From Gammaproteobacteria bacterium (lineage in GTDB: Bacteria; Pseudomonadota; Gammaproteobacteria; Eutrophobiales; Eutrophobiaceae), in NCBI GenBank assembly GCA_965222155.1, contig CBDCTH010000012.1:512001-576000 (forward strand): a DNA stretch of 64,000 nt, given 5' to 3'. The notes under the pieces are model-generated. The model searched no databases, was not told the DNA's origin, and worked only from the letters and a program-made list of their open reading frames with translations. Positions 42,129-59,355 of the stretch are shown piece after piece (the stretch's first letter is position 1; each line of letters begins with the position of its first letter). The position numbers and the translations under genes are program-made.

Positions 42129-42274
42129 TTGGAGATAACCGGAGTAGTTTGGCTGGTCAAACTAACCGCGGTCGCTTCTTAAGCGTATTCTTCGTCTATA
42201 CAGAGGATAAACAAGCTATCATCGTTTCAGTCCGGGACATGTCATAGAAAGAAAGGAGAAGATATGCCAGCTAA
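42129..42274 (+). pseudogene. BrnT-like toxin remnant
   Basis: AAGGAG RBS and LEITGVVWL, then a frame change to GQTNRGRFLSVFF..IVSVRDMS*KERRRY (internal deletion plus stop codon). Confidence 0.7.
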
Positions 42275-42566
42275 AACACCCATTTCAAATGCCGACACGT
42301 ACCAGGATATTGGGGCGTTTTGGGATAAACACGATGCTACCGAGTTCGGACAACAAACCAACGCTGAATTTCAGGTGGGTATATCATCGCAACGCAGATA
42401 CTACCCATTAGACCGGGATCTTTCTGTTGAGATTAGGCGAATTGCTGAGCAACAAGGAGTTAGTCAAGAAACACTGCTGAATATCTGGGTTCAAGAAAAA
42501 ATCGATCAAATTCAAATTGCCAACCAAGACCACAGCCTGACAAAAGATTCCAGCGGACGCTCCTGA
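42264..42566 (+). CDS. CopG/BrnA-like antitoxin
   Basis: IGAFWDKHD and RHH-like IAEQQGVSQETLLNIWVQEK; overlaps the toxin remnant. Confidence 0.75.
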   Translation: MPAKTPISNADTYQDIGAFWDKHDATEFGQQTNAEFQVGISSQRRYYPLDRDLSVEIRRIAEQQGVSQETLLNIWVQEKIDQIQIANQDHSLTKDSSGRS

Positions 42567-43323: not shown

Positions 43324-43662
43324 CTATGTGAAGAGGGAGTTCAGAAAAGGCAATACCTCAACAGCTATAATCAGTCCGACCATCCATTTTAAAACCAGTG
43401 AATCGGCCTTCAATGCTCCTATATCGGCCTTCACTGTCACCATATCGGCCTTCAATGCTCCTATATCGGCCTTCAATGCTCCTATATCGGCCTTCAATGC
43501 CCCTATATCGACCTTCACTGCCATGATATCCGACTTTGTTGCGAGGTTCTGATTCATAGCATGGTTTATCGTCGTTACTATCGCCTCGGCCTGTGTGTCG
43601 TTTAAGCCTGAGTTCGTCATGGCCTTGACCGCTTGGTGAGTATCAAATATTGCTGTATTCAT
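43324..43662 (-). CDS. DUF1640/CCDC90-like coiled-coil membrane-anchored protein
   Basis: FDTH..QAEAI..LATKSD, heptad repeats and C-terminal KWMVG TM segment. Confidence 0.75.
   Translation of the reverse strand: MNTAIFDTHQAVKAMTNSGLNDTQAEAIVTTINHAMNQNLATKSDIMAVKVDIGALKADIGALKADIGALKADMVTVKADIGALKADSLVLKWMVGLIIAVEVLPFLNSLFT
43402..43527. repeat. Six 21-bp tandem repeats (KADIGAL heptads)
   Basis: ATCGGCCTTCAATGCTCCTAT units. Confidence 0.92.
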
Positions 43663-43775
43663 TAATTCCTGGCTCCTTTTTTGTCCTGGCTGACTACAAG
43701 AATATAGCGCCATCATTTCATAAATGCGTTGCAGGAAAGCATAGCAGGAGCAATGACGGAGTCAAGCGATATAGC

Positions 43776-44081: not shown

Positions 44082-45038
44082 ATGAATGCAACATTATTAA
44101 TTGAACCCCGATTACCGCTGGCATACTACCGGTTCAGGTTCCGTACAGAGGAACCAATACATTTGCCGAGCTACTCCGGTTCCGCCTGGCGCGGCGTATT
44201 CGGCCACAGCCTGAAAAAACTGGTCTGCGTTACCCGTGAACCACACTGTGAACCCTGCCTGTTGTACCGCAGCTGTATTTATCCCTATATCTTTGAAACA
44301 CCGCCCGACCCCGGCGTCGGCAAACTGCGCAAATACAATGCTGCGCCGCATCCGTTCGTACTGTGCCCGGGCGCTACCATGCGTGGTGAGCTGTCGGCGG
44401 ATACCGAGCACAGTCTGGACGTAACGCTGTTCGGGCACGGTAACCGTCATCTTCCCTATATCATTCATGCGCTTGGCCAGGCCGGGCAGCGCGGCATCGG
44501 GAAACAACGCGGAACGCTCGAATTGTTTGAAGTCCGGCAACGAGTACAGGAGACATGGCTTTCCATCTACCAGCCTGGCGGGACCTTACAACCTCATCCT
44601 GCAGCATGTGTCAGCCTGCCGGATTGCCCGGCGTCGTTGCAAATCCGGTTCCTGACACCCTTGCGTATAAAAGCCGGCGAGCGCCTCGTCACGCCGGACA
44701 ACTTTACTTTCAAGACCCTGTTTTCTACCCTGCTGCGGCGTATTTCCCTGCTCACTGCATTTCATACCGACACTCCACTGGAAACCGACTTTGCTGCGCT
44801 GACCCAGGCTGCCAGGGTGATGCCCGTGACGAATCATGACTTGCGCTGGCACGATTGGACCCGTTATTCCAGCCGGCAGGACAGCCTGATGCAGCTTGGC
44901 GGGCTGTTGGGCACGGTTGTTTTTGAGCACGACCAGCTTGCGCCTTTCTGGCCCTATCTCTGGCTCGGCCAGTGGACTCACACCGGCAAAAATACCAGCA
45001 TGGGTCTGGGCAAGTATGAAATCATCGAGGTAGTTTAA
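44082..45038 (+). CDS. cas6: CRISPR pre-crRNA endoribonuclease Cas6
   Basis: GSAWRGVFG, Cys cluster and C-terminal G-loop HTGKNTSMGLG. Confidence 0.93.
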   Translation: MNATLLIEPRLPLAYYRFRFRTEEPIHLPSYSGSAWRGVFGHSLKKLVCVTREPHCEPCLLYRSCIYPYIFETPPDPGVGKLRKYNAAPHPFVLCPGATMRGELSADTEHSLDVTLFGHGNRHLPYIIHALGQAGQRGIGKQRGTLELFEVRQRVQETWLSIYQPGGTLQPHPAACVSLPDCPASLQIRFLTPLRIKAGERLVTPDNFTFKTLFSTLLRRISLLTAFHTDTPLETDFAALTQAARVMPVTNHDLRWHDWTRYSSRQDSLMQLGGLLGTVVFEHDQLAPFWPYLWLGQWTHTGKNTSMGLGKYEIIEVV

Positions 45039-45066
45039 CTCGACTCATCCCCTGAACGACAATACC

Positions 45067-46338
45067 ATGGAAGCCGTAATGAAATATACTGATAGCGCAA
45101 TAAAGCCTGTACCGGAAAACAGAAATCCGGTGTCTGTATTGGAAAGTGGTAATCCGGTATCCAATGCAGGTTCAGCCAGCGCGCCGGGAGGTTTTGAAAA
45201 ACGCATTTTACTGTGTGTGGCAGGTTTATCGCCGCAGGTGATTACCGAGTCGCTTTATGCACTGGCAACACGGGAAGACAAATTCATCCCGACGGAAATT
45301 CATATCATTACCACCGCCGAAGGCGCCGGCAGGATACACCTGACCCTGTTTGAGGACGACCAGGAAGAACAACATTTTTACCGGCTCTGCGCTGATCTCG
45401 ACCTCAACCCCATGGACATCCGCTTCAACGCTGACACCATCCACCGGATAGGCCGTCAGCCAGACGACAATACACCCCTGTCTGCGTGTCCCGCACAGGC
45501 AGGACTGGACGACATCCGCAGTATCGGCGACAACGAGGCCGCGGCCGATACCATCACCGCCATCGTGCGCGACCTGACCGCCGACCCGCAAGCAGCCATC
45601 CATGCTTCTATCGCCGGTGGCCGTAAGACCATGGGCTTCTACCTGGGCTATGCCATGAGCTTGTTCGGACGTGAGCAGGACCGTTTATCCCACGTGCTGG
45701 TATCCCCACCGTTCGAATCGCACAATCAGTTCTACTACCCACCCAAAAAACCGAAAGTGTTGCGGGACAGGAACGACCGCCCGATACATACTCGTGATGC
45801 TGAAATCACATTGGCAGACATCCCTTTTGTACGACTACGGGGGCACTTGGACAAGGGCATACTCGGCGGAAGCATGAGTTATTCCGAAACCGTTTCCCGA
45901 ACACAGCACAACGTTAATCCGCCAAAGCTGATACTCGACAGCACCAACAAAACAATACAGTGTGGTGGTTACTCCATCCCCCTCGCTCCCAGCCTTTTTG
46001 CCTTTTATACCTGGTTTGCCCGGCGTCTGTTGGCGGGCAAACCGGGCATACACTGGAGCCAGGACGGGCTAGAAGAAGAATACCTCGAAGAATATGCCCG
46101 CATTGTTGGTGAGCACAGCGCGGAATATGATAATGCCTGTGTCAGCTTAAAAAAAGGCATGGACGAGGATTTCATTGACCCGAAAACAAGCAAGATCAAC
46201 AAACAGCTTGAAGAAACCTTAGGCAAGGAACCCGCCAGGCCTTACCTGATCAGTAAAACGGGTATTAAACCCGGAACTCGATACGGCTTGAAAGGTTTAA
46301 CGCTGAAAAAGGAGCAGGTACGATTTCTGGAGGAATGA
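45067..46338 (+). CDS. NE0113-family CARF protein (Csm6/Csx1-like, candidate ring nuclease) with probable C-terminal winged HTH
   Basis: GLSPQVITESLYAL, DDIR, SIAGGRKTMG and DRLSHVLV; no convincing HEPN domain seen. Confidence 0.85.
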   Translation: MEAVMKYTDSAIKPVPENRNPVSVLESGNPVSNAGSASAPGGFEKRILLCVAGLSPQVITESLYALATREDKFIPTEIHIITTAEGAGRIHLTLFEDDQEEQHFYRLCADLDLNPMDIRFNADTIHRIGRQPDDNTPLSACPAQAGLDDIRSIGDNEAAADTITAIVRDLTADPQAAIHASIAGGRKTMGFYLGYAMSLFGREQDRLSHVLVSPPFESHNQFYYPPKKPKVLRDRNDRPIHTRDAEITLADIPFVRLRGHLDKGILGGSMSYSETVSRTQHNVNPPKLILDSTNKTIQCGGYSIPLAPSLFAFYTWFARRLLAGKPGIHWSQDGLEEEYLEEYARIVGEHSAEYDNACVSLKKGMDEDFIDPKTSKINKQLEETLGKEPARPYLISKTGIKPGTRYGLKGLTLKKEQVRFLEE

Positions 46339-46344
46339 CAGAAG

Positions 46345-46395
46345 CGGCAAGCTTGCCGAATGTAAAAAACGAATCCCTTTTATAATAGTATGAGC
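46345..46395 (+). promoter_or_regulatory. CGGCAAGCTTGCCG palindrome plus TATAAT promoter of the cmr operon
   Basis: Perfect 14-bp palindrome at 46345-46358; TATAAT at 46381. Confidence 0.7.
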
Positions 46396-46458
46396 ACAAG
46401 CGGTCGAAATAACGGTTATATGCACGAGAATACCTGACATGGCAGACTCACAAAAAAT

Positions 46459-47598
46459 ATGCCCTCTGGAGCAGTCATAATGCAGAAGATGAAATACAAA
46501 GTCAGGTTTCTGACACCGGCATTTCTTGGCAACGCCGAGCAGAACGGTCAGTGGCGCACGCCACCGTTCAAGGCGTTGCTGCGACAGTGGTGGCGGGTGG
46601 CGGTGGCAAAGGAAGTTAGCTATGACTATACGCGGCTTCGTGAGCGAGAAGGCCGGTTATTCGGGCACGCTTGGCTCAAGGACGACAAAGGAAAAAGCTG
46701 GGCGTCGAAGAGCCAAGTTCGTCTACGCCTTGAACCTTGGTTGGCCGGCAGGATGACTAATGAAAAATGGCCGGGTGGACGAATCGAGAAGATAATAACG
46801 ACGCGCGATGGGAAAGGAAAGGTTCGAAGCGATCTATATCTTGGCTTTGGCCCGGTTCTGCCTAGTAAGAGAGACAACCGGAAAGATATTGAGTTGGCCC
46901 ACAATGCGATTGATGTGGATACAACGGCGACATTGCAGATATTATCCGAAGCACTGCCTGATGAACACCACTTCCTGTGTGACACCATTCAGTTGATTCA
47001 TTGGTTCGGAGCACTTGGATCTCGGAGTCGCAACGGCTGGGGTTCGCTCATTCTTGAGGGGCCTGCTATCGACCCAGCAAGCCGAATGATTGACACATCG
47101 CTACTTTCCCGTGTAACTCAATATTGGAAGGAATGCTTACATACCGATTGGGCGAACGCGATAGGTTGTGACGAACATGGTCCTTTGATCTGGGTGACCG
47201 GCCCAGTGAAGGATTGGCAGGCAGTGGTGAAGGAGTTTGCCTCACACCTCGTGAGCGTGCGTCGTGTAGCGAAGGACTTTCATCCGCGTGGGCAGGCTAA
47301 TGGTCTTCACGGTATTCATCTGCTCGGATACCCAGCGGGTAGCCGGTGGCAACTAAGCGCTTGGGGGAACGATGGGCGCCTTGCCAGCCCGTTACGGTTC
47401 AAAGTGATCGCTTGGGATGAGGGTCTTCTTCGGGGGATGATCTTCCACATTCCCTGCAACATTCCGGAATCGTTGAGGGACAAACTTGGGAACACCGGGC
47501 AGGATTGGTTGACAAAGAACCAAGAAGCGGTTTGGGCACAGGTGCATGAAAAGCTGGATAACTCACCGAGGCTTATCAGAATGAGTCAACCAGGATGA
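46459..47598 (+). CDS. cmr1: Type III-B RAMP Cmr1
   Basis: FLTPAFLG, LLRQWWR and GALGSRSRNGWGS; start may be 46480. Confidence 0.88.
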   Translation: MPSGAVIMQKMKYKVRFLTPAFLGNAEQNGQWRTPPFKALLRQWWRVAVAKEVSYDYTRLREREGRLFGHAWLKDDKGKSWASKSQVRLRLEPWLAGRMTNEKWPGGRIEKIITTRDGKGKVRSDLYLGFGPVLPSKRDNRKDIELAHNAIDVDTTATLQILSEALPDEHHFLCDTIQLIHWFGALGSRSRNGWGSLILEGPAIDPASRMIDTSLLSRVTQYWKECLHTDWANAIGCDEHGPLIWVTGPVKDWQAVVKEFASHLVSVRRVAKDFHPRGQANGLHGIHLLGYPAGSRWQLSAWGNDGRLASPLRFKVIAWDEGLLRGMIFHIPCNIPESLRDKLGNTGQDWLTKNQEAVWAQVHEKLDNSPRLIRMSQPG

Positions 47599-50500
47599 GC
47601 AGGCAGGACAAAATGACACTCTGGCATGCCAAACTTGCTGCCTGGACGCACGACCCGGCGGAGAAGGCGTTAGTTCTGCTGCGCGACCCCGCAGGCCACG
47701 AGTGGGGAACAGTCGCGGACCTCAGGGAGAGAATCTTCGGCCAACGGGACATCCCGCCGACATTGAAGAGCATAGTCGAGCGAGCTGATCACTGGGCCGC
47801 CGCGGCAGATCGCCCCCAATGGCCTCGTGATGAAAAGGACGGGCGTTATGTGCAGTGGGCGCGGGTTCGTTTCACTGAGAAACCGATACTCATACATCCC
47901 CTGTCAGGGGAAGATCTCGAGCTTGAAAAGCTATCAGATATTCCCGTCGAACATATCAAGGCAGTCAGCCGAGACCACTTTTCTAAACTGATCGATAGTG
48001 AGAAGAACGAGAAGAAAACCGCGTTGGCATTCTGGCGCTTCGGCCCGATGCTTAGAAAAACGAATGGGCAGCAGCCAGATGAACTCGGCGAGTTTTGGGG
48101 ACTTCTGCCTGCTGACACACGAATACCGGACCACACGATCTGGCAGCACCTGGACCTTACTGCGGCGTTTGCTACAGCCTTTCATGCCGATAAGAACAAC
48201 AACCCCGCGCTGCTGGCGGTCAGTTTCGGTCCGGTGCAGGAATTCATCGCCCAGGCGCGCACCACGTCCGATCTCTGGGCCGGGTCTCACCTGCTCTCCC
48301 GCATCGCATGGGAAGGGATCAAAGTGGTCTGCACCGAATATGGTCCTGATGCGGTGCTATTTCCTCAGTTGCGCGGCATTCCACAGGTGGACCTTTGGCT
48401 GCAGAACGAGATGAAACTTCCGAAGGACTGGTTCAAAGACGAAGAATGGAGAAAAGGTACCACTGATTCCAATCCGCTGTTTGCGGCAGCGTTGCCGAAC
48501 CGGTTTGTTGTGTTGGTGCCTGCTTCGGCGGCTACAGAGTTGGCGAAGTGCATCACTACGACGGTCCGTGATTGGGTGATTAGCAAAGGCAATGAAGCAC
48601 TCGACAAGTTACTTAAACGGGCGTGTATTTCTGACACTAACGTCCAGGAAGTATACGATCAGATTAAGGCGCAACTCACTGGCTTCCCGGAAGTCCACTG
48701 GACAGTTGTGCCGTGGTGCCCATTGATTGGCGACAGCGGTGGTGTACCGGATGTTACCAGTTTGTATGGCGTACTGAAGACGTTCCATGGAGAAGAGACG
48801 TCTCAGGGCTTTCTCGACTCGAATGCTTGGAAGCTGCTCTCCCGCGAGCTGACAGCCAATGGGCAGCGTTTCTATATGCCTAACGCCGGCGTTCTCTACC
48901 CCGCGCTGTATGATCTCCTCGACCGTTCGCAGGCGGCTGCGAAGTCCGTACGCACGTTCCGGCAGTTGGCTCAAAAGGGCTACCGCTGCTCGCTGTGCGG
49001 TGAACGGGAATGGCTCACCCATGATCGGGAACTTCTGAATCTGCCGCCGGGAAAGCGTCGCGAAGCGGGCAGCCTCTGGTGGAAACTGCAAGACACTAGC
49101 TGGGCTCGAAAAGGTGAGCATCTTTGCGCACTTTGCACCCTGAAGCGATTGTGGCCCAACCTCTACTGTGACGAAACCGCTGAGGCTCTTAACATCCATC
49201 TAACTCGTTTCGTCGTGTCCACTCACACGATGGCCCTTGCTACCAGCTTGGAACGGTGGTTGGAGCAACAGAATCGGAAGCGCCTGCCTGAACGATGGCT
49301 TAGCCAGTTAGAACCGCTGTCCCGTCAGAGAACCGTGGCGTTACCCCGCAAGCTCGCAAAACGCTTACTCGACGATGACCCAAATATACGCGCTATGCTT
49401 CGGGGGCTACCGCTCTTCCTCGAGGACCGCGACGAAGAGTCGCAGAGCGATGAATCCGATGACCGAGACAAAACAGAAATGCTTACCAGGGAACTCGACT
49501 GTGAGCTAAAAAAGGTGCTCGGTCACAAACCGGAAGCCTACTACGCGATGATTCTCATGGATGGCGACCGTATGGGCGCGTGGTTGTCCGGTCAGGGCGA
49601 GGACGGAGAACGCTATCGGTTGCCGTTCGAATGCGCTTGGCATCCTCAGCTACGCACCAGGCTCAGGGGCCGCCATGCAAAGGATGATCTAGCGACATAT
49701 CTTAGTGAAAAGCGTCCCGTCTCACCAGCCCGTCATATGGCGATTTCAAGCTCGCTCAACGGATTCGCTCTACATATCGCTCGCTACATCATCGAGGATG
49801 TTGGTAAAGGTAAGCTGATTTATGCTGGTGGTGACGACGTGCTGGCTATGGTCTCCGTGGACGACTTGTTGGCAATCATGTTCCTGTTGCGACTCGCTTA
49901 TAGTGGCATCTCTCCAATCGAATACGAGGATAAGTTACAACTTGAGAAACTAACCGGTCTATCATCCAGTCGTTTCGACCTTCGTCGTGGGTATGTGACA
50001 CTTGACGATAAGCTGTATCGCATGATGGGGAACCGGGCCACTGCCTCTGCCGGCGCCGTGGTCGCTCACCATAAGGCACCTCTCGGTTTCGTGCTTCGCA
50101 AGTTACGGGAGGCGGAGCAGCGGGCGAAGAAAGACGGCGGGCGCGATGCCTTTGCTATTTCGTTGCTCAAGCGTTCCAGCGGTGCAACTCAGCTTATCTG
50201 CCCTTGGTTCATGCCACAATTGAGTAAACTCGCGGGCGGGCAGAAGGCTATGCACAATCCGGAAGAAACTCCTATGGGTCAACTCATCCTGTTGCGCGAT
50301 CGGTTCGCGAGCCAAACGTTCTCTCGTCGCGCCGCGTACCTCACCCAGGGCTGGCTGACCGAAACTCCCGAATCCGCACTCAGTGCCATGCTCGGTTACC
50401 AGTTCAAGCAACAGACCATCGGCGACGAGGCTGACAAGCAAGATGCCGAGTCCGTCGGTAAGACTATCGGGGAACTGGCTATCGCCATCAATGCGTCGTC

Positions 50501-50633
50501 GAGTGGCCGGGAAACCGAGAGCGGCTATCACCGGCGAGAATTACGGCTTCGGTCCTTCATTGAAGATTTTCTTGCCGTTGCCGAGTTTCTTGCCCGAGAA
50601 GGGCGAACGAAAGCCCCGGTGACGAGGGAGTAA
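47595..50633 (+). CDS. cas10: Type III-B Cas10/Cmr2
   Basis: THDP, SDLWAGSHLLS, CSLCGE, DGDRMG and YAGGDD cyclase motif. Confidence 0.96.
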   Translation: MSRQDKMTLWHAKLAAWTHDPAEKALVLLRDPAGHEWGTVADLRERIFGQRDIPPTLKSIVERADHWAAAADRPQWPRDEKDGRYVQWARVRFTEKPILIHPLSGEDLELEKLSDIPVEHIKAVSRDHFSKLIDSEKNEKKTALAFWRFGPMLRKTNGQQPDELGEFWGLLPADTRIPDHTIWQHLDLTAAFATAFHADKNNNPALLAVSFGPVQEFIAQARTTSDLWAGSHLLSRIAWEGIKVVCTEYGPDAVLFPQLRGIPQVDLWLQNEMKLPKDWFKDEEWRKGTTDSNPLFAAALPNRFVVLVPASAATELAKCITTTVRDWVISKGNEALDKLLKRACISDTNVQEVYDQIKAQLTGFPEVHWTVVPWCPLIGDSGGVPDVTSLYGVLKTFHGEETSQGFLDSNAWKLLSRELTANGQRFYMPNAGVLYPALYDLLDRSQAAAKSVRTFRQLAQKGYRCSLCGEREWLTHDRELLNLPPGKRREAGSLWWKLQDTSWARKGEHLCALCTLKRLWPNLYCDETAEALNIHLTRFVVSTHTMALATSLERWLEQQNRKRLPERWLSQLEPLSRQRTVALPRKLAKRLLDDDPNIRAMLRGLPLFLEDRDEESQSDESDDRDKTEMLTRELDCELKKVLGHKPEAYYAMILMDGDRMGAWLSGQGEDGERYRLPFECAWHPQLRTRLRGRHAKDDLATYLSEKRPVSPARHMAISSSLNGFALHIARYIIEDVGKGKLIYAGGDDVLAMVSVDDLLAIMFLLRLAYSGISPIEYEDKLQLEKLTGLSSSRFDLRRGYVTLDDKLYRMMGNRATASAGAVVAHHKAPLGFVLRKLREAEQRAKKDGGRDAFAISLLKRSSGATQLICPWFMPQLSKLAGGQKAMHNPEETPMGQLILLRDRFASQTFSRRAAYLTQGWLTETPESALSAMLGYQFKQQTIGDEADKQDAESVGKTIGELAIAINASSSGRETESGYHRRELRLRSFIEDFLAVAEFLAREGRTKAPVTRE

Positions 50634-50637
50634 TGCA

Positions 50638-50922
50638 ATGCATCCGTTGATTGAAGCGCATCGTGCAGAAATTTTAGCCTTGGCTAAGCGCCGTGGCATT
50701 AATAATGTGCGAGTGTTCGGTTCCATGGCCAGGGGCGACGCGGATGAAGCCAGTGATGTGGACCTGCTGGTATCTATTCCTCGCAACAAGAGCGGCCTCG
50801 CGCTTGGCGGGCTGCTCATGGATGTTCAGGAGTTGGTGCAACGCCGAGTGGATATAGTAAGTGACCAGGGCTTGCATCCGGCTCTACGCGAACGCATACT
50901 TTCCGAGGCTGTACCACTATGA
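50638..50922 (+). CDS. Minimal nucleotidyltransferase (MntA-type antitoxin)
   Basis: FGSMARGDADEASDVDLL matches GSx10DxD. Confidence 0.92.
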   Translation: MHPLIEAHRAEILALAKRRGINNVRVFGSMARGDADEASDVDLLVSIPRNKSGLALGGLLMDVQELVQRRVDIVSDQGLHPALRERILSEAVPL

Positions 50923-51281
50923 GATCTGCTGCCGAATCCGACAAAGTCTTGCTAATTCATATTCAGAGTAGTATTGAAAACATTCGCCAGTACACTGGCG
51001 TAAAACGGGATACTTTCTTCGGTTCGCAGTTGGTCCAGGATGCAGTGCTGCGTAACCTTCAGACGCTCGCCGAATCTACGCAACGACTCAGTAAGCCACT
51101 CAAGGCCACGGAACCAGGCATTCCGTGGCAGGAGATAGCCGGTTTTCGAAACGTACTTACGCATAGTTATCTGGGTCTTGATCTTGACGTGATATGGAAT
51201 GTACTGGAACATGATCTGGATGCATTGTCCGAGGCCGTTGAGCGCATGACGCAGTTTATCGAGGGAGACGTTTCTTCGTGA
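50919..51281 (+). CDS. HEPN/DUF86 ribonuclease toxin (HepT-type)
   Basis: IPWQEIAGFRNVLTHSY matches Rx4HxY; ATGA overlap with the MNT gene. Confidence 0.92.
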   Translation: MRSAAESDKVLLIHIQSSIENIRQYTGVKRDTFFGSQLVQDAVLRNLQTLAESTQRLSKPLKATEPGIPWQEIAGFRNVLTHSYLGLDLDVIWNVLEHDLDALSEAVERMTQFIEGDVSS

Positions 51282-52450
51282 CCACAAACCTCTTCCTGGA
51301 ACCACTCGACGTGCTCTACCTACGTGGTAATCGCCTGTTCCAAGGCGCAGGCGCGCATGGCGAAGCATTGATGCCACCCTGGCCGTCACTCGCTGCTGGG
51401 GCTATTCGCTCGCGAATGCTGGCGGATGCGGAGGTGGACTTCGAGTCCTTCGCGGGTGGCTCACTGATCGATAATCCAGGTATCGATCATGCTCTGGGCA
51501 CTCCGGAGAAGCCCGGTGCTTTCCGTGTTTCCAACTTCGTCCTTGCTCGTGGCGGCTCGCGTGCAATGCGACCGAACGAGGCAAGTGTTGAACTTTGTGT
51601 ACCACTGCCAGCCGATGTGGTCATCACGGATGGTGAAGGACTCGGTAATGCCACCTATCTGATCCCCAGCGAGTTGCCTCTGAAAACCAGTGCGGTTCTT
51701 CCGATGGTTCCGGCGTTGCGGACGGTGAGCCCGGGTAAACCAGTCTCTGGCCTGTGGCTGAATTGCAATGGTTGGTCGGCGTACCTGAAGGGCAAACCAA
51801 TTGAGAAAGATCACCTGCTGCGGAGTTCTGAGCTTTGGGGACTCGACCCCCGTCTTGGCATTGCACTGGACCGCACGAGTGGAACCACTGATACTGGTAT
51901 GCTTTATACCGTCGAAACAGTTGGGCTGTGCGATGATGTCGGGTTTCTTGTGCGTATTGATGGCGCGGATGGTTTACTACCGAATTCAAATTTGCTTCGA
52001 CTTGGAGGCGACGGGCGGGGTTCGACAACCAAGGTGGTCAAGGTCGAATGGCCGGAGCCCAACTGGGAACGTGTTGAACAGGAAAGAAGGTTCCGTGTTG
52101 TACTCGCCACCCCCGGCATTTTCCCGGATGGGTGGCAACTGCCGGGTTGCACAGCCGATGGGTGGTGGTCAGGTCCGCAAGGGGTGCGGGCTAAGCTGGT
52201 GACTGCCACAGTCTCCCGCGCCAGCGTGGTGAGCGGGTGGGACCTCGTCAGTAGGCAGCCCAAGGCGGCCCTGCGGACTGCTCCCGTAGGCTCGGTCTAC
52301 TGGTTTGAGAACCTCGAAGGCGGAACGGTGGGCCTTCGCAAGCTTGCGGATGAGGGCTTATGGCCCTGTATGATAGACAATGACATCGACTTGGCCCGAC
52401 GAGCGGAAGGGTTCAATAATATCTATATTGCGGCTTGGCCGCAGGTCTAG
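51278..52450 (+). CDS. cmr3: Type III-B Cmr3
   Basis: LEPLDVLYLR, PPWPS, RLGGDGR, SGWDL and PVGSVY. Confidence 0.93.
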   Translation: MTTNLFLEPLDVLYLRGNRLFQGAGAHGEALMPPWPSLAAGAIRSRMLADAEVDFESFAGGSLIDNPGIDHALGTPEKPGAFRVSNFVLARGGSRAMRPNEASVELCVPLPADVVITDGEGLGNATYLIPSELPLKTSAVLPMVPALRTVSPGKPVSGLWLNCNGWSAYLKGKPIEKDHLLRSSELWGLDPRLGIALDRTSGTTDTGMLYTVETVGLCDDVGFLVRIDGADGLLPNSNLLRLGGDGRGSTTKVVKVEWPEPNWERVEQERRFRVVLATPGIFPDGWQLPGCTADGWWSGPQGVRAKLVTATVSRASVVSGWDLVSRQPKAALRTAPVGSVYWFENLEGGTVGLRKLADEGLWPCMIDNDIDLARRAEGFNNIYIAAWPQV

Positions 52451-52465
52451 AAGCGAGGTAGGAAT

Positions 52466-53413
52466 ATGTACCAGGCACAGAAAGCACTCTTTTTTTACTG
52501 CGTAAGTCCCGTCCATATGGGTGCAGGTACTGCCATCGGGCTGATAGACAACCCGATACAACGCGAGCGACATACTGACTACCCCTTATTCGCTGGTTCC
52601 GGCATCAAGGGAGCAGTGCGTCATCACTTCCATGCCGATGGCTGGAACAAAGACGAGGAACTGCTCAACCGTATCTTTGGGCCCAAGAATTCCGAGTTTG
52701 CAGGAGCAGTAAGTTTCGGTGATGCTCAGTTAGTTGCCTTTCCGGTGCGCTGTACCAAACACGCCTATGTTTATGCCACATCACCGACTGCCTTGGCGCG
52801 CACGCGGCGGCAACTCGAACACTTGCAGGTCACCCCTGATTGGAAAATAACTGAAGTCGAGGAAGGCGGTTGTCGTGTCGTGCCCGGATCGGGTTTGACC
52901 GAAGGAACGAGCCTGAATCTGGAGGTATTTCAGTACACTGCAACAGACGAAAAGGAGCTTGCAAAGATTGCCGGTTGGCTTGCGGACCAAGCATTGCCGC
53001 CGGGCGATGCCTATGCCTTCTTCCGTGACAAGCTCAAAACCGACCTCGTGTTGTTGCCGGATGAGGACTTTACTTACTACATCAAGAACGCCACTGTGGT
53101 CGAGCCCCACGTGCGTATTGATGACAAGACAGGAACCGCCGACGACGGTGGCCTCTTCTACACTGAGAATCTACCGCCGGAATCGTTACTCCTGGCTCCA
53201 TTGATGGCTTCGGGAGAGCGACGCGGGCGCCATGATGGTAGTAATGACCATATAATGTGTGCGCAGGAGGTTATGGAGAAGGTACTTGATGGACACAATG
53301 AAGGAGTAGGGCTGAATGGCCTATGCTTACAGCTTGGTGGCGATGCCACCACGGGACGCGGTCAGGTCATTGTTACGTCAGTAGAGGAGAAGGATAATGA
53401 TGCGGACACTTGA
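52466..53413 (+). CDS. cmr4: Type III-B Cmr4
   Basis: HMGAG, IDNPIQRE (catalytic Asp) and QLGGDATTGRG. Confidence 0.96.
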   Translation: MYQAQKALFFYCVSPVHMGAGTAIGLIDNPIQRERHTDYPLFAGSGIKGAVRHHFHADGWNKDEELLNRIFGPKNSEFAGAVSFGDAQLVAFPVRCTKHAYVYATSPTALARTRRQLEHLQVTPDWKITEVEEGGCRVVPGSGLTEGTSLNLEVFQYTATDEKELAKIAGWLADQALPPGDAYAFFRDKLKTDLVLLPDEDFTYYIKNATVVEPHVRIDDKTGTADDGGLFYTENLPPESLLLAPLMASGERRGRHDGSNDHIMCAQEVMEKVLDGHNEGVGLNGLCLQLGGDATTGRGQVIVTSVEEKDNDADT

Positions 53414-53750
53414 ACAACAGCGGGCCGAGTATGCTTGGAAGATAGTACAGGAAGGCTGCAACGATAAATACACCAGTCTTGCCAAAGGCGCGCCAGCACT
53501 TATCATGGCTAACGGCCTGATGCAGAGCCTGGCCTTCTACGAGTCGAAAGGTCAGGACCACCATAAGACATTAAACAGGCACATTCTTGGTTGGTTGTAC
53601 AAACAGAAACTGGTCAAAACCGAAGATTTTGTAACTGCGATGAACGATCTGCACAAGACCAGTTCGGTTAACTACCGCCGCGCAACCCAGGAGGCTCTGG
53701 ATTTCCTGAAGTGGGTGCGGCAGTTCGCTCCTGCGGCGCAGAGCGAATAG
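53397..53750 (+). CDS. cmr5: Type III-B Cmr5
   Basis: TLEQQRA, PALIMANGLMQSLAF; small helical protein. Confidence 0.92.
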   Translation: MMRTLEQQRAEYAWKIVQEGCNDKYTSLAKGAPALIMANGLMQSLAFYESKGQDHHKTLNRHILGWLYKQKLVKTEDFVTAMNDLHKTSSVNYRRATQEALDFLKWVRQFAPAAQSE

Positions 53751-53773
53751 CGAGAGGAAGGATCGATCTATCT

Positions 53774-54979
53774 ATGCCTATAGCCGCCGTACCTGAATAC
53801 CTCGGAAATGATTTGAGCGATTGTCCGCCAGGGCATCGTTTTACACTTTATGGCGCGTTCTGGGAAAAACAGAGCTGGAAACGGGTGAAAAATATTGAGC
53901 TGACACATCTGAAGCCGGTTTCCAAAAACTTGTCTCCTGCCACCGCCACACTGCGCGACGCGCTTATCCAACGTCAGCACTGTCTTGCAGAAAGGCTTGG
54001 CGAGGGCGTGTCGAGTTACTTGACCAAATCGGTTTCTCCCTTCGTAACCGGTACCGGTATTGAGCACCCGCTGGAAAATGGAATGGCCTTTGTCAATCCA
54101 TACGGTTTGCCCTATCTTCCCGGCTCCGGCGTTAAAGGCGCGCTGCGCAAGGCAGCCGAGGAATTGGCAGATGCGGCAACAGAAGAAGATAACGGATGGA
54201 CGAAGAAGGCGATAGAAGTATTGTTTGGAAAGCAACCTCGCTCCGTAACCGACAAAGCTGAACGCGGCGCGCTGACGTTCTGGGATGTCTTTCCCGACTG
54301 CTCAAAGCTGTGTATCGAGATAATGACCCCTCACTATAGTGACTATTATCAGGGGAACACCTCGCCTCACGACGCTGGCGCTCCGATACCGATCTACTTC
54401 ATCGCTGTGCCCGCAGAGAGCGACTTTGCTTTCCATGTGCAATGCGATGTACGCTGTTTGAAGGACAAGGCTGATTTGTCAGGACAATGGCGAAAGCTGC
54501 TCGACAGCGCATTCGATCACGCCTTCGATTGGCTTGGCTTCGGCGCCAAGACGGCTGTCGGATATGGTCATATGCGCATTGATACAGCTGCGACAAAACG
54601 GAACGAAGACGAGCGCAGAAAGAGCGCGGTGCAGGCAACGGAACGCCGAGAACGAGAGAAGCAGGAACAAGATCTACAGGATGCACGGGGGCATCTCCCA
54701 GAAGATGCCGTTTGGATAGAAAAACAATTTATGGCCGGTGAATGGTCCGATACAAACCGTTTCCTGGTTGAGGTGGAGAAATTTCTTGCCCACAAGCGGG
54801 ATCTCAGTAACGAAGCATATGATCGCTTGGTGGGTGAGATATCAGATCGTTGGCCTGGAATACTGGAAAACCCTGACGTTGTCAGGGGCAAGAAAAAAAA
54901 GCCAAAATACAAGCCTAGACCGCGTGAATTGGCGAAGAAACTGATCGCGTTGAAACCGGAAGCTAAAAAGAGTCCGTGA
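53774..54979 (+). CDS. cmr6: Type III-B Cmr6 with C-terminal extension
   Basis: YGLPYLPGSGVKG, IMTPHY and GFGAKTAVGYG; ATG 53774 chosen as start. Confidence 0.94.
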   Translation: MPIAAVPEYLGNDLSDCPPGHRFTLYGAFWEKQSWKRVKNIELTHLKPVSKNLSPATATLRDALIQRQHCLAERLGEGVSSYLTKSVSPFVTGTGIEHPLENGMAFVNPYGLPYLPGSGVKGALRKAAEELADAATEEDNGWTKKAIEVLFGKQPRSVTDKAERGALTFWDVFPDCSKLCIEIMTPHYSDYYQGNTSPHDAGAPIPIYFIAVPAESDFAFHVQCDVRCLKDKADLSGQWRKLLDSAFDHAFDWLGFGAKTAVGYGHMRIDTAATKRNEDERRKSAVQATERREREKQEQDLQDARGHLPEDAVWIEKQFMAGEWSDTNRFLVEVEKFLAHKRDLSNEAYDRLVGEISDRWPGILENPDVVRGKKKKPKYKPRPRELAKKLIALKPEAKKSP

Positions 54980-55003
54980 AAGAACTAATCCTCATGAACG
55001 ACG

Positions 55004-56215
55004 ATGTCCGAAATCCATATCTGCCTGTTATCTGACCAATTACTCCCGAATCTCATCCCGATTCTCATGGAACGGCCGGTTTGTGTCTATCTTGTCGCGA
55101 CCCCGGAGATGGTGAAAAGGGGACGCGATGTACGGATGCGGCGATTGCTGCGCCATGAGAAGATCGAACCGCGCATTCGCGAAGGCGCACCAAGCACCGG
55201 TATCGATAAAATCCGCGCATTCGCCGAGAAGCTGACGCATGAGATAGTGAAGGACAAGGACAGCGCCGGCAGGACTCTCGTGCTAAATGCAACCGGTGGG
55301 ACGAAGTTGCTCTCCATGGGATTTGTCGAGGTGTTCCGTGCGCACTTGGAAGGCTATCCGTTGCGGGTCATCTATACCGATACGGAGCATCAGGTGCTCG
55401 AAACCCTTGTACCTCGTGGGTTGGATGCCACGCCGATGGGAGGTGTGCTGCGGGTAGAGAGCTATCTGGCCGCGCAAGGAATGACATTCGTCTCGGCAAT
55501 GTCGGATGACTTGGAGTGGCGGTCCGTCGTTCAGGAGCGATGCAAACTCACTGTATACCTTGCTAACGAATGCGAGCGCCTCGGCGGTTTTCTTGGAATG
55601 CTGAATGGGCTTGTACACGGAACTGGACGGCAGTCGGGTGCACTTGCATCGAACGGAGGCGAGTTGCTCCATCCTGAACAACGACTCAACCGGTCACCCC
55701 GAGGATTGTACCGGGAGGTGCTGAAACGTGTCGCCGATGTGGGTCTGATCCAATGGGTCGACGCCAAGACGGTCCGCTTCAACACGGTCGAGGCTGCACG
55801 CTATCTCGGTGGCCATTGGCTGGAGGAGTACGCTTGGTTGGTCGCTGACGCCGCGGGCCTGCAAGACGCTCGGTGCTCGGCAACCGTGCGGTGGGAGTTA
55901 CAGAGCGGACCCGAGGCGCCGACCAACGAGTTCGACTTGCTGGCGGTGCATAACAACCGGCTCCTGCTCGTCGAGTGCAAGACAGGACAACAAGCTGCCG
56001 GTGAGCAGGCAGTTGCCACGCGACTGGAGAGCTTGAGCCGGAACGCGGGAGGTTTGTTCGGCTTATCTCTGCTTGTGTCCGCCAGAGCTCTCCCGACTAC
56101 GATGAGAAATCGTTGCCAGAGCCTTGGCATCAGGCTCCTTGAACAAGGAGAGGTAAAGAGGCTTGCGGATTACGTCGATCAATGGCGAGATACCGGCGCG
56201 CTTACATCCCGGTGA
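55004..56215 (+). CDS. Card1/Can2-like (DUF1887) CARF plus PD-(D/E)xK nuclease
   Basis: SDQLLPN, NATGGTK, GHWLEEY and NEFDLL..VECKT. Confidence 0.88.
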   Translation: MSEIHICLLSDQLLPNLIPILMERPVCVYLVATPEMVKRGRDVRMRRLLRHEKIEPRIREGAPSTGIDKIRAFAEKLTHEIVKDKDSAGRTLVLNATGGTKLLSMGFVEVFRAHLEGYPLRVIYTDTEHQVLETLVPRGLDATPMGGVLRVESYLAAQGMTFVSAMSDDLEWRSVVQERCKLTVYLANECERLGGFLGMLNGLVHGTGRQSGALASNGGELLHPEQRLNRSPRGLYREVLKRVADVGLIQWVDAKTVRFNTVEAARYLGGHWLEEYAWLVADAAGLQDARCSATVRWELQSGPEAPTNEFDLLAVHNNRLLLVECKTGQQAAGEQAVATRLESLSRNAGGLFGLSLLVSARALPTTMRNRCQSLGIRLLEQGEVKRLADYVDQWRDTGALTSR

Positions 56216-56477
56216 GTCGCGGAGTTGCCGACCCGCTGAGTCACCCCTGGGCGGAGTAACCCAGACCTGTCTGGTACTGCGCGGCCGTGTGCCCATCCAA
56301 TCTTTACGACTTTAATTGAAGTAAAAAAGATAGTAGCCTGTAACGGTTTTCAAGCTATGAGGGTAGTAGCCAATGCCGAGAGTCAGCGCAAAACGACAAA
56401 TCGACACTTCCCGTCGACCAGTGTAATGAAGTGGGGATACGCCCGGGTGATGAGTACCGGAGCATCGTTGAGGTGGC

Positions 56478-56585
56478 AAACCTGCCAAGCCGTACCTGAT
56501 CAGTGATATCAGCGTCATTCACTGATAATATAACCTGAAGGCATTGATGCTGAAAAAGGAACAGGTACGGTTCCCGGAAGAATGA
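56478..56585 (+). pseudogene. Remnant 3' end of a second NE0113-type CARF gene
   Basis: KPAKPYLIS..**..LKALMLKKEQVRFPEE* versus EPARPYLIS..LKGLTLKKEQVRFLEE* of 45067-46338. Confidence 0.85.
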
Positions 56586-56591
56586 CGAGGA

Positions 56592-56642
56592 CGGCAAGCT
56601 TGCCGAATGTAAAAAGACGGGGTTTATTGTATTAGTATGAGC
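56592..56642 (+). promoter_or_regulatory. CGGCAAGCTTGCCG palindrome and promoter of the csm operon
   Basis: Same palindrome, AATGTAAAAA and TAGTATGAGC at identical offsets to 46345-46395. Confidence 0.7.
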
Positions 56643-56666
56643 TATTAAACGGCAAGAACACTTAAT

Positions 56667-59351
56667 ATGACTGATCCAGCAAATTTCATTACACCATCAG
56701 CACGAGTGGCGCTCGCAGCTTTTTTGCACGACCTCGGCAAGTTTGCTGAGAGGGCAAAAATTGATACTTCCTCTGAAATTCTCGAAAGTAATCAGCAGAT
56801 TTACTGTCCGCATCATAAAAAATCAACAGACGATAAAGGCTGGTTTTCTCATAAACATGCAGCCTACACCGCTATCGCTTTGGACCGGATTGAAGCACAC
56901 TTACCACCGCTCAAAGGCCAGAATGTGGAACCGTTTGCAACCTGGGGTTCGGATGACGTCGATGATTCACTGATCAATGGCGCGGCCAAGCACCACAAAC
57001 CCGATACTTTTCTGCAGTGGATTATTGCCACCGCTGATCGCGTTGCATCCGGCTTTGAACGTAACGAGTTCGAAGAATATAACAAGGCAAGGGAAGGCAC
57101 AGCTACCGGTAAAGATCATTACACAGCCCGACAGTTGACCTTATTTGAACAAATCCGATTGTATGACAAAAGCCGCAAACAGACGTATCGTTATCGTTAT
57201 CGCTATAAACTTAAGCCGCTTTGCCCTGATGCGTTAGTGCCTGTGCCAGCAGAAGGCTATGAGCCGGAAAGTCGCGCTGAAGCTCAAAGGGAATATAAGG
57301 CACTCTGGGACGGTTTTACCGAAGGACTTGGAAAGATACCTGAATCCCATCGAAAGAATCTACCTCTCTGGCTGGATCACTTCGAATCGCTGTGGGGTTG
57401 CTATACTCACGCGATACCATCTGCTACTGCGTTTAATACTCGACCGGACGTATCACTTTACGATCATTCCCGTGCAACAGCGGCACTGGCGGTTGCGCTG
57501 TGGCGGTATCACCATGAGCGTAAGGATGATACAGAAAGAGCAACCCGAGTGATGCGAAACAGGGAAGATTGGAATGAGCAGAAGTTGCTGCTCATCCAGG
57601 GTGATTTTTTTGGTATCCAGGATTTCATTTTTGCTACTGGTGGTGAAACCCGGAAACGTGCAGCCAAGCTGTTACGGGGACGTTCGTTCTATATCTCTCT
57701 GTTGACCGAATGTGCCGCTCTTAAAATATTAGACAAGCTGGGGCTACCGGCAACCAGCCAGATTACTAATGCCGCCGGTAAATTCCTGATCGTTGCGCCG
57801 AATACTGAAGGTATACGCAATACTTTGGGCCAGGTTCAACAGGAGTTGGACGAATGGTTCAAGACTAATAGCTGGGCAGTCTCAGGTATCGGTTTAGCAG
57901 CTTTACCTGCTTGCTGCAACGATTTTCTGAAACAACAGGGAGACGAAGAAAACACGCCTTTTCAACGCCTCATGACAAGACTGTTTGAGGCGTTGGAAAA
58001 TGCCAAGCTGAAACGTTTCGACCTGTGCAATCAGCAACCTGAAGCAGCGATTTTTACCGGCTTTTTAGAGCAATTTCATAATAATAAGGGAGTTTGTGAG
58101 ATCGATGGGCACTCTCCGGCAACGCAAGTCGATGATGGGATATCCATAAGTGACTTGGCGCATGACCAAATCAGGGTCGGTGAGTATCTGACCAAATACG
58201 AGCGGTTTTTGATCACCCGCAATGAACTTGATCATAATACCCTGCGGCTACCCATTTTTGGCTACCATGTCAGCTTCACTCGTGACGAAGAAATAACCGG
58301 TCAATTCAGCCGGTTGGCTATCGAGGGCAAGCTGTTGCGTGCTGTTGATTTTTCTTTACCTCAAGCCAGCGCTACCGCGCTCTGGAACGGTTATGCACGG
58401 CGCTATATTAACGGCTACGTGCCCAGGTTCCGTCAGGATGATCTTGACAATAAGGACAAATACAAATCTGTAGAAGAGGCAATTGGCATTGAGCCTGATG
58501 CTGTCAAATCGCTTAATCACATTGCTTGTGAAGGCGCTGGAATTCATGCTCTGATGACCCTGAAAGGTGACGTCGATAATCTGGGGTTGATCTTCCAACA
58601 GGGTCTTGCCCGGTCGGATAAAAATGACAAAAATGGCCATAAAGGAGGGCTGACATTCGCCAAGATGGCGGCCTTATCACGGCAAATGGATGCTTTTTTT
58701 ACGATTTACCTGCCTTACCGATGCCAAAAGGATTATCCCGATACCTATACCGTATTTGCCGGTGGTGACGACTTTTTCCTGATTGGCCCCTGGCATTCAC
58801 AAATCAGATTGGCCAAGGAAATGCAGCAATGGTTCAGTGAATACGTAACGCGTAATCCCGAAGTGCACTTCTCGGTCGGTTTATTCATGACCAAGCCAGG
58901 TCTGCCGATTCGCTATTTGGCAGAACAATCTGAGCGGGCACTGGAAAAGGCCAAAAAGTATAATTCACAGGACTGCCAACCTGCACCAAAGAATGCCGTT
59001 ACCTGTTATGGGCACAGTATCGGCTGGGACAGTTTCAAGAAACTGATAGAGCAATCGGATGAACTGGAAACCCTGGCTGGCGAAATTGAACTCAGCACAG
59101 GTTATCTGTATAGCCTGTTGCAGTTTACTGACATGCAGTCGGAGATCAGCGAAAAACCGGAAAAGGCTTTATGGCACTCGTGGTTTGCCTATCGGACAAA
59201 GCGAATGCTTGAACGTATTCGCGGCCTGGATACCAGGCAATGGCATAATAAGCTGGCCGATGCCATCGCTCACCGGGGCATAGAGACATACGCCCAGGCT
59301 TACAAAATTGCCCTGTTTACTTATCTTTATAAACATCGTAAAGAGGATTGA
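56667..59351 (+). CDS. cas10: Type III-A Cas10/Csm1
   Basis: LHDLGK HD domain, VSLYDH, LRGRSF, KGDVDNLG and FAGGDD. Confidence 0.97.
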   Translation: MTDPANFITPSARVALAAFLHDLGKFAERAKIDTSSEILESNQQIYCPHHKKSTDDKGWFSHKHAAYTAIALDRIEAHLPPLKGQNVEPFATWGSDDVDDSLINGAAKHHKPDTFLQWIIATADRVASGFERNEFEEYNKAREGTATGKDHYTARQLTLFEQIRLYDKSRKQTYRYRYRYKLKPLCPDALVPVPAEGYEPESRAEAQREYKALWDGFTEGLGKIPESHRKNLPLWLDHFESLWGCYTHAIPSATAFNTRPDVSLYDHSRATAALAVALWRYHHERKDDTERATRVMRNREDWNEQKLLLIQGDFFGIQDFIFATGGETRKRAAKLLRGRSFYISLLTECAALKILDKLGLPATSQITNAAGKFLIVAPNTEGIRNTLGQVQQELDEWFKTNSWAVSGIGLAALPACCNDFLKQQGDEENTPFQRLMTRLFEALENAKLKRFDLCNQQPEAAIFTGFLEQFHNNKGVCEIDGHSPATQVDDGISISDLAHDQIRVGEYLTKYERFLITRNELDHNTLRLPIFGYHVSFTRDEEITGQFSRLAIEGKLLRAVDFSLPQASATALWNGYARRYINGYVPRFRQDDLDNKDKYKSVEEAIGIEPDAVKSLNHIACEGAGIHALMTLKGDVDNLGLIFQQGLARSDKNDKNGHKGGLTFAKMAALSRQMDAFFTIYLPYRCQKDYPDTYTVFAGGDDFFLIGPWHSQIRLAKEMQQWFSEYVTRNPEVHFSVGLFMTKPGLPIRYLAEQSERALEKAKKYNSQDCQPAPKNAVTCYGHSIGWDSFKKLIEQSDELETLAGEIELSTGYLYSLLQFTDMQSEISEKPEKALWHSWFAYRTKRMLERIRGLDTRQWHNKLADAIAHRGIETYAQAYKIALFTYLYKHRKED

Positions 59352-59355
59352 TGTT

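Follow-up and report, generated by a model that had tools for sequence, protein, structure and literature searches.

Why does a toxin-antitoxin gene pair stand between cas10 (also called cmr2) and cmr3 in a type III-B CRISPR-Cas operon, and does it serve the immune system that surrounds it? The question is raised by a 64,000-nucleotide (nt) stretch of gammaproteobacterial DNA (assembly GCA_965222155.1, contig CBDCTH010000012.1, positions 512,001 to 576,000; here called the window), in which genes for a minimal nucleotidyltransferase (MNT) and a HEPN ribonuclease (RNase) lie within the cmr operon. An earlier annotation made from the letters alone, referred to below as the original prediction, had recognized the pair and offered three roles for it: an addiction module guarding the cas operon, an abortive-infection backup released when cas expression is shut off, and crosstalk with Cas10 signaling at the level of adenylates. 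We favor, with moderate confidence, the reading that the pair is an ordinary class I HepT/MntA cassette that rides as a promoter-less passenger in the operon. Its main effect is most likely selfish persistence, and it is probably not a signaling component of Cmr immunity.

Identity of the gene pair

The antitoxin gene (mntA-like; 50638 to 50922, plus strand, ATG start) encodes 94 amino acids (aa), and the toxin gene (hepT-like; 50919 to 51281, plus strand) encodes 120 aa. Class I HepT/MntA pairs are defined by a PF01934 or PF08780 protein beside a PF01909 protein, with an RX4HXY motif in the toxin and a GSX10DXD motif in the antitoxin (PMC7641770). The window toxin matches PF01934 (HepT-like) at 2.6e-24, with 85.6 bits against a cutoff of 23.5 and over profile positions 1 to 120, and the antitoxin matches PF01909 (NTP_transf_2) at 3.3e-13, with 50.3 bits against a cutoff of 21. 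The MNT gene lies directly upstream of its HEPN neighbor and overlaps it. As originally described, both catalytic motifs are intact: that of the antitoxin (50719 to 50766, plus strand) reads G28-S29, 10 further residues, and D41-V-D43, and that of the toxin (51147 to 51170, plus strand) reads R77-N-V-L-T-H82-S-Y84, in which Y84 is the predicted AMPylation site. Among 25 HEPN homologues, H82 and Y84 are invariant and R77 is nearly so.

Comparisons with solved structures point the same way. The antitoxin matches the minimal nucleotidyltransferase of PDB entry 1WOT at 1.9e-18. The toxin has a weak phmmer match to the solved HepT of Shewanella oneidensis (1.3e-4), and this alignment spans the motif, which aligns with that of 5YEP and 6M6U. 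An AlphaFold2 model of the toxin, built with 25 homologues, reached a predicted local distance difference test score of 90, and its PDB fold matches at the listed ranks 1 to 23 are all HepT/HEPN toxin chains (TM score 0.56 to 0.70, probability 1.00), the best being those of S. oneidensis HepT and the Aphanizomenon flos-aquae HEPN toxin, although the Foldseek E values of these matches are weak (best 4e-3, none at or below 1e-3). Judged by families, motifs, gene order, the 1WOT match, and fold, the pair belongs to the class I HepT/MntA modules (type VII toxin-antitoxin systems), in agreement with the original prediction.

Characterized MntA moves AMP from ATP onto the motif tyrosine and thereby blocks the RNase (PMC7641770). 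By analogy with such relatives, the window MntA would use ATP to oligo-AMPylate Tyr84 beside the Rx4H site and so hold a presumably toxic HepT RNase off.

Coupling of the pair to cas10 and cmr3

The four genes cas10, mntA, hepT, and cmr3 are arranged as a translational chain. The cas10 stop codon (TAA, 50631 to 50633) is followed by a 4-nt spacer (tgca, 50634 to 50637, plus strand) and the MNT start, ahead of which a Shine-Dalgarno-like GAGGGAG run lies within the last cas10 codons. The MNT and HEPN genes overlap by ATGA (50919 to 50922), and the HEPN gene and cmr3 overlap by GTGA (51278 to 51281); the 3' end of hepT (51261 to 51281, plus strand) carries both this stop/start overlap and a Shine-Dalgarno-like run, GAGGGAGA, for cmr3. 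The GTG start assigned to cmr3 agrees with its homologues, with 99 to 100% query coverage in most rows listed and with M1 as an invariant column. Spacer and overlaps thus stand as first reported, and so does the claim that the geometry leaves the pair no intergenic room for a promoter of its own. In a consensus scan of the plus strand, which is weak evidence and leaves a promoter within cas10 possible, no promoter-like site was found at 48659 to 52391; the same scan gave no terminator-like site at 50151 to 53822.

We asked how common this arrangement is by aligning 25 Cmr3 homologues and scanning one genome per GTDB species. The scan yielded 267 confirmed matches, and the best 80 loci among them form the set examined here (L001 to L080; the window's own genome lies outside them, and the top Cmr3 identity is 69%). 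The contents of these loci were established by tblastn of the window proteins against them and by Pfam scans. An MNT-HEPN pair occupies the cas10-cmr3 junction in 2 of the 77 loci having both genes, namely, L001, a Nitrospirales metagenome-assembled genome, and L080, from Thiocapsa sp. KS1. A third locus, L060 (Mariprofundaceae), starts inside the HEPN gene and probably carries the cassette too, as its Rx4HxY motif is intact and the HEPN stop overlaps the cmr3 start. The survey for recurrence that the original prediction had called for therefore shows that the insertion is not a one-off. In global alignments with the window, L001 has identities of 74% (MNT), 67% (HEPN), 70% (Cmr3), and 73% (Cas10), and L080 has identities of 73%, 59%, 49%, and 49%, respectively. 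The two share one layout, in which cas10 is followed by a gap of 1 to 10 nt, the MNT gene, an ATGA overlap, the HEPN gene, an xTGA overlap, and cmr3, and both motifs are intact in both. The cassette is codirectional and coupled in all four copies (window, L001, L080, and L060). Beyond these loci, HepT homologues at 56 to 69% identity form at least 120 clusters; a tblastn search of plasmids with the HEPN sequence gave 26 records, mostly cyanobacterial and all below 46% identity, and was uninformative on the close subfamily. As a separate observation, L001 has a second HEPN-class/MNT pair just after cmr6, at 13592 to 14005 and 14265 to 14573 (NTase_sub_bind at 9.3e-40, then NTP_transf_2).

The original prediction stated that cas10 and cmr3 are normally adjacent, and the 72 related loci that lack an insert bear this out. 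In 60 of them the cas10 stop and the cmr3 start overlap, most often by 4 nt (47 loci) and otherwise by 8 nt (10 loci) or 1 nt (3 loci); in the other 12, a gap of 1 to 20 nt separates the two genes. The frequency of this overlap indicates that the cassette occupies the exact site of an ancestral coupling. The HEPN stop substitutes for the cas10 stop, so that cmr3 stays coupled to whichever gene precedes it. A purine-rich Shine-Dalgarno-like run is present in the final HEPN codons of all four copies; the HEPN tail GD[V/I]S is common to the closest homologues, and the form GDVS[S/L] is also conserved among them. Careless removal of the cassette would disrupt the translational coupling to cmr3.

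Tight coupling invites the idea of an abortive-infection backup. If phage shut-off or anti-CRISPR repression blocked cmr transcription or translation, the supply of MntA would end, and unmodified or de-AMPylated HepT would arrest the cell. The codirectional, tightly coupled arrangement of all four copies and the lack of a nearby plus-strand promoter-like site would suit such a role, the MNT family is a PADLOC phage-defense candidate (PDC-S09, 2.6e-32; PADLOC gave no match for the HEPN protein), and ATP level, proteolysis, and AMP-removing enzymes are listed as possible triggers (PMC13000451). However, shut-off would halt hepT and mntA alike, HepT that is already AMPylated would remain off unless a phosphodiesterase acted on it, and the literature passages searched report no anti-phage activity for this family. 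Moreover, of the 26 toxin-antitoxin cassettes that related cmr operons hold (described below), 10 are antisense and hence do not depend on cas expression. Release upon cas shut-off is thus conceivable for this pair, which would be cotranscribed with its neighbors, but the antisense cassettes undercut it as a general rule, and we regard the backup role as unlikely.

Toxin-antitoxin cassettes at cmr junctions generally

The passenger reading draws on what stands at the other junctions of related operons. We measured every cmr1-to-cmr6 junction in the 80 loci and counted an expansion of 250 bp or more as an enlarged junction, which applied to 38 of 358: 5 of the 77 examined between cas10 and cmr3, 4 of 61 between cmr1 and cas10, 17 of 78 between cmr3 and cmr4, 12 of 71 between cmr5 and cmr6, and none of 71 between cmr4 and cmr5. 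A Pfam scan of all gap open reading frames (ORFs) of at least 70 aa (92 on the plus strand and 81 on the minus strand) placed toxin-antitoxin cassettes in 26 of the 38 enlarged junctions, 16 of them codirectional with the operon and 10 antisense.

The codirectional cassettes comprise the two MNT-HEPN pairs (L001 and L080), six pairs in which an 81- to 101-aa ORF without an assigned family precedes a PIN toxin between cmr3 and cmr4 (L009, L021, L024, L026, L027, and L033), and eight HicA/HicB cassettes. Seven of the last group lie between cmr5 and cmr6 (L004, L006, L007, L009, L010, L033, and L055; the HicA model was reached in L006, L033, and L055), and one, recognized by HicA, lies between cmr1 and cas10 (L009). 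Antisense cassettes are of three kinds, namely, Phd/YefM-PIN between cmr3 and cmr4 (four; L047, L062, L064, and L070), RHH-PIN_3 between cmr5 and cmr6 (four; L047, L056, L062, and L070), and VapB-PIN between cmr1 and cas10 (two; L066 and L077). Plus-strand gap ORFs of 219 to 248 aa without a Pfam match were discarded, since a minus-strand control exposed them as spurious shadows of antisense toxin-antitoxin pairs.

Families and junctions correspond: MNT-HEPN is found between cas10 and cmr3, sense and antisense PIN pairs between cmr3 and cmr4, HicAB and RHH-PIN_3 between cmr5 and cmr6, and VapBC between cmr1 and cas10. This preference holds even though each family shows several changes on the Cmr3 tree.

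The 12 remaining enlarged gaps hold a Schlafen-type gene (three), a RhuM-Fic gene (three), a Uma2 gene (one; L008), or no Pfam match (five; L005, L011, L054, L072, and L075). The Schlafen-type gene, which encodes about 500 aa with AlbA_2, HATPase_c_4, and Fic-like_C domains, lies between cas10 and cmr3 (L030, 8409 to 9992; L031, 4217 to 5716; L065, 8487 to 9989), and in L030 it overlaps each neighbor by 4 nt. The RhuM gene with a Fic/DOC domain (about 325 aa) lies between cmr3 and cmr4 (L042, 5041 to 6018; L044, 4495 to 5538; L067, 11123 to 12100) in one small clade, and one change on the Cmr3 tree accounts for it.

At least one toxin-antitoxin cassette is present in 20 of the 80 loci or, with L060 and the window included, in 22 of 81, corresponding to 12 changes on the tree. 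As a baseline, greedy ORF calling in 649,932 bp outside the cmr1-cmr6 span gave 716 ORFs, of which all 330 of 60 to 175 aa were scanned. The flanks hold about nine toxin-bearing modules, with PIN proteins in L009, L010, L025, L030 (two), L036, and L077 and HEPN-type proteins in L001 and L075. The comparison of 26 in 358 junctions with 9 in 716 flank ORFs gives a Fisher odds ratio of 6.2 (p = 6e-7), or p = 0.03 with only the 12 tree-independent events, and is rough, being based on crude gene calling in the flanks and on phylogenetically related loci. With about one-fourth of the operons of this Cmr clade bearing toxin-antitoxin cassettes in their gene junctions, the idea that such cassettes help retain cas genes becomes sharper. 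At least six unrelated toxin-antitoxin families occur at these junctions, in both orientations, and a generic passenger or retention role fits this diversity best. The common factor is not cotranscription with the cas genes, which argues against release upon the end of cas expression as a general rule.

The same diversity bears on crosstalk with Cas10. Under that proposal, activated Cas10 would drain ATP into cyclic oligoadenylates (cOA), or a ring nuclease or phosphodiesterase encoded in the locus would strip the oligo-AMP from Tyr84, and HepT would then act as an extra effector RNase of the type III-B system. Cas10 of the window has a GGDD motif, the locus has an NE0113-type CARF protein (called a ring nuclease by its NCBIfam name) as well as Card1, and the place directly after cas10 recurs in three lineages. 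MntA-type enzymes consume ATP, and the undoing of AMPylation is said to require unknown phosphodiesterases (PMC7641770). However, Pfam shows no CARF or SAVED sensor in either protein (the 94-aa protein shows NTP_transf_2/Polbeta only and the 120-aa protein HepT-like only), and the catalytic-family match spans most of each. The pair is present in only two or three of about 78 related loci, and its HepT homologues are numerous (>120 clusters), which gives no ground for a Cmr-specific clade. Sister operons hold PIN and HicA cassettes without adenylate chemistry; the common factor is thus a toxin-antitoxin cassette in a cmr junction rather than nucleotidyltransferase chemistry, and this speaks against crosstalk as the reason for the position. 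This part of the original prediction found no support, and we consider it very unlikely. We are just as skeptical of its most ambitious form, in which type III-B immunity would have domesticated the pair as a second arm, coupling protein AMPylation to cOA signaling, and in which its fixed position after cas10 in three Cmr lineages would reflect selection for stoichiometric coexpression with Cas10. As a further point for the passenger reading, the locus already has effectors of the cOA type in the NE0113-type CARF protein and Card1, along with the GGDD-bearing Cas10.

A side observation concerns two flanks (L077, 11338 to 12235; L075, 4721 to 5722) in which a toxin-type gene, encoding PIN in L077 and a PF05168 HEPN protein in L075, lies downstream of cmr6 and directly precedes an STIV_B116-like gene. 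The STIV_B116-like family includes viral and cellular ring nucleases, and the combination of a toxin-type RNase and an enzyme that may degrade cOA could be of interest.

Evolutionary history of the cassette

The carriers fall at three separate places on an 81-row Cmr3 tree (quick IQ-TREE run with support from the Shimodaira-Hasegawa-like approximate likelihood ratio test). The window and L001 are sisters (support, 98), and their next relative, L002, is without the cassette. L080 belongs to the other major clade, beside its cassette-free sister L052, and L060 is sister to L055 (77% Cmr3 identity), which likewise lacks this cassette. Parsimony requires three changes for the four carriers, and an approximately unbiased test rejects a tree that groups the four together (p = 5e-5; the group was set by insert content after the tree had been seen). 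The HEPN tree (119 database homologues, 121 columns) is poorly resolved; it places the window and L001 within a supported clade of 13 rows and L080 elsewhere, beside a 96%-identical database protein, while L060 is very divergent. HEPN identities (67, 59, and 59%) roughly track the Cmr topology, whereas MNT identities (74, 73, and 79%) do not. Nucleotide identities from global alignment, all between 68 and 77%, were uninformative.

No sign of a recombination tract was found between the window and L080: the last 100 aa of Cas10 are 33% identical and the first 100 aa of Cmr3 are 61% identical, and the same comparison with the insert-free sister L052 gives 35% and 59%, respectively. In each of the three full copies, the GC content at third codon positions of the cassette follows that of its host locus, which indicates that no copy is a fresh arrival. 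Three captures at one junction and a single early capture followed by many losses would both account for the distribution.

Patchy occurrence would also suit a neutral insertion. The cassette would have landed in a tolerant junction and would stay, with no effect, because clean removal is rare. In line with this, toxin-antitoxin cassettes are present in the flanks too, the distribution on the Cmr3 tree is patchy, and such cassettes move readily and are abundant, the number of class I HepT/MntA pairs reported being 15,977 (PMC7641770). Against it, no full copy has lost either catalytic motif, the geometry of the coupling is conserved, the per-junction frequency is about six times the flank frequency, and the ameliorated composition argues for long retention under selection. 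A cassette without any effect is, in our judgment, improbable; if this one is inert, it is one more case of toxin-antitoxin genes accumulating in defense loci.

A probable passenger in the cmr operon

Under the passenger reading, the cassette would be transcribed from the cmr promoter and translated as a coupled chain from cas10 through mntA and hepT to cmr3, as one of many toxin-antitoxin cassettes that colonize gene junctions of this Cmr clade. Its persistence would be selfish, and it would persist because the coupling of the operon is preserved; as a side effect, the surrounding cas genes would become harder to lose. Of the roles first proposed, addiction or retention thus remains the best fit, given the many toxin-antitoxin families at cmr junctions.

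Several points weigh against this reading. The NCBIfam equivalog cutoffs were missed by both proteins (NF047751 HepT_toxin, 58.0 against 60; NF047752 MntA_antitoxin, 42.2 against 60), and since these naming thresholds lie outside the literature definition, we read the pair as a divergent subfamily. The cassette is rare (two of 77 related loci plus one truncated copy), and most Cmr loci persist without it. Classical postsegregational killing cannot be assumed, since HepT neutralization in this family is covalent and standalone MntA was reported to be stable in S. oneidensis, with less than 10% degraded in 60 min (PMC13000451). In type III-D2 loci, growth arrest did not require the VapBC-like module (PMC13294483). 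The fidelity of each family to its junction is unexplained if the cassettes are passengers, the enrichment is as rough as stated above, and the strict stop/start geometry at three tree positions together with the ameliorated composition leaves room for a selected role.

Should the retention effect be real, the pair would be a protein-based counterpart of the toxin-antitoxin elements proposed to prevent the loss of costly CRISPR-Cas loci, in a bacterial type III-B system amenable to genetic tests. The sense-oriented MNT-HEPN inserts keep stop/start coupling. There is also a consequence for annotation, as such passengers could wrongly pass for accessory effectors.

The surrounding CRISPR-Cas region

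The layout of the region was derived from an ORF listing and direct reading of 50500 to 51400, with neighbors named by Pfam and NCBIfam. The gene order is cas6, an NE0113-type CARF gene, cmr1, cas10, the MNT and HEPN genes, cmr3, cmr4, cmr5, cmr6, and Card1, followed by a complete type III-A csm operon and a Csx1 fragment; type III-B (cmr) and type III-A (csm) loci hence lie in tandem on one strand (44082 to 63998). A search for CRISPR arrays in the window gave none, and Pfam showed no match to cas1 or cas2 among the window ORFs scanned. Three genes are of the CARF type, namely, NE0113/Csm6-like (45067 to 46338), Card1 (55004 to 56215), and Csx1 (from 63441).

The first gene of the cmr operon, cmr1 (RAMP; 46459 to 47598, plus strand), was assigned from its operon position and from tblastn matches to cmr1 of related loci, and its stop overlaps the cas10 start. 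cas10 (47595 to 50633, plus strand) encodes 1012 aa with matches to Pfam Cmr2_N (1.5e-32), Cas10 palm2 (4.4e-25), and TIGR02577 (245.7 bits), and the GGDD cyclase motif is at residue 745. cmr3 (51278 to 52450, plus strand) encodes 390 aa and is identified by Pfam Cas_Cmr3 (2e-60) and its homologues. The remainder of the operon (52466 to 54979, plus strand) consists of cmr4 (52466 to 53413), cmr5 (53397 to 53750), and cmr6 (53711 to 54979), whose junctions in the window are free of inserts.

A perfect 12-nt palindrome, GGCAAGCTTGCC (46346 to 46357, plus strand), lies between csm6 and cmr1, immediately behind the csm6 stop and some 100 nt ahead of cmr1, and is probably part of the upstream control region of the operon. 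A second copy is present at 56593 to 56604, upstream of csm1, where the segment 56479 to 56615 corresponds to 46229 to 46368 and represents the decayed 3' end of a csm6/NE0113 gene with in-frame stops. The palindrome and GAATGTAAAAA follow this decayed csm6 copy as they follow the intact csm6 upstream of cmr1, and together they may be a shared regulatory element of the type III-B and type III-A operons.

Elsewhere in the window, a 21-nt unit that gives 7-aa repeats recurs in tandem about eight times at 43381 to 43548 inside a minus-strand ORF (43324 to 43716; 130 aa) with a weak CCDC90-like coiled-coil match. A weakly CopG-antitoxin-like ORF (42264 to 42566, plus strand) stands just upstream of the CRISPR region, and an MmeI-family restriction-modification fusion (22214 to 25189) and a HipA kinase toxin (34848 to 36140) are encoded on the minus strand.

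Comparison with known systems

The closest characterized relative is the type VII prototype, HepT/MntA of S. oneidensis (SO_3166/SO_3165; PDB 5YEP, 6M6U, and 7BXO), which has the same order with MNT upstream and HEPN downstream, the same motifs and Pfam families, and the HepT fold that ranks as the top match to the window toxin (TM score of about 0.65). Sequence likeness between the two toxins is weak (22 to 24% identity), and both window proteins are shorter, the toxin having 120 aa against 133 aa. Unlike the S. oneidensis pair, the window pair lies inside a cas operon with no promoter room of its own. The HEPN-MNT module of A. flos-aquae (PDB 7AE2, 7AE6, 7AE8, and 7AE9) is of the same fold class (ranks 11 to 23) and is likewise neutralized through an AMPylated tyrosine, with 11 to 14% identity between the HEPN proteins over the fold alignment. 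That module reportedly stands near a type I-D CRISPR-Cas locus, beside the cas locus rather than inside a cas operon. It is listed as a type VII toxin that cleaves tRNA 3' ends (PMC11610964).

HEPN RNases are also encoded in type III loci as Csm6 and Csx1 (PMC3710099). These combine a CARF sensor with an Rx4-6H HEPN domain of other families, whereas the window HEPN consists of HepT alone (120 aa) and has an MNT as its partner.

In the CreTA systems, which share the idea of a toxin-antitoxin element within a CRISPR-Cas locus, toxin and antitoxin are RNA based and the antitoxin acts through the Cas effector complex. Such pairs guard cas genes and make them addictive (PMC12737573). The likeness drawn in the original prediction between CreTA and the window pair is loose: both parts of the window pair are proteins, nothing in their sequences links MntA activity to Cmr, and there is no hint of Cas-dependent neutralization because MntA is a complete, self-contained enzyme.

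Nearer parallels come from other type III loci. In Sulfolobales, vapBC pairs are scattered among the genes of type III cas cassettes, with four in one type III-D cassette of Acidianus, and a part in maintaining CRISPR-Cas has been proposed for them (PMC4390879). These are likewise toxin-antitoxin pairs within type III interference cassettes, but they are archaeal type II PIN toxins with regulation of their own, whereas the window pair is bacterial, of type VII, translationally coupled, and at a fixed junction. A VapBC-like module is described as usual in type III-D2 loci, and a role as a SAM-AMP off-switch has been suggested for it (PMC13294483); both the toxin family and the CRISPR-Cas subtype differ from those of the window pair.

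In the passages searched, a large survey of type III accessory genes reports finding no toxin-antitoxin pairs (PMC6546367), a 2024 survey of type III systems gave no match to the terms looked for (PMC11229360), and another paper has the term in a reference only (PMC12669027). No account of a HepT/MntA pair placed between cas10 and cmr3 turned up in our literature text searches. Toxin-antitoxin pairs in type III cas cassettes are already published (PMC4390879 and PMC13294483), and HepT/MntA at the cas10-cmr3 junction is an added case.

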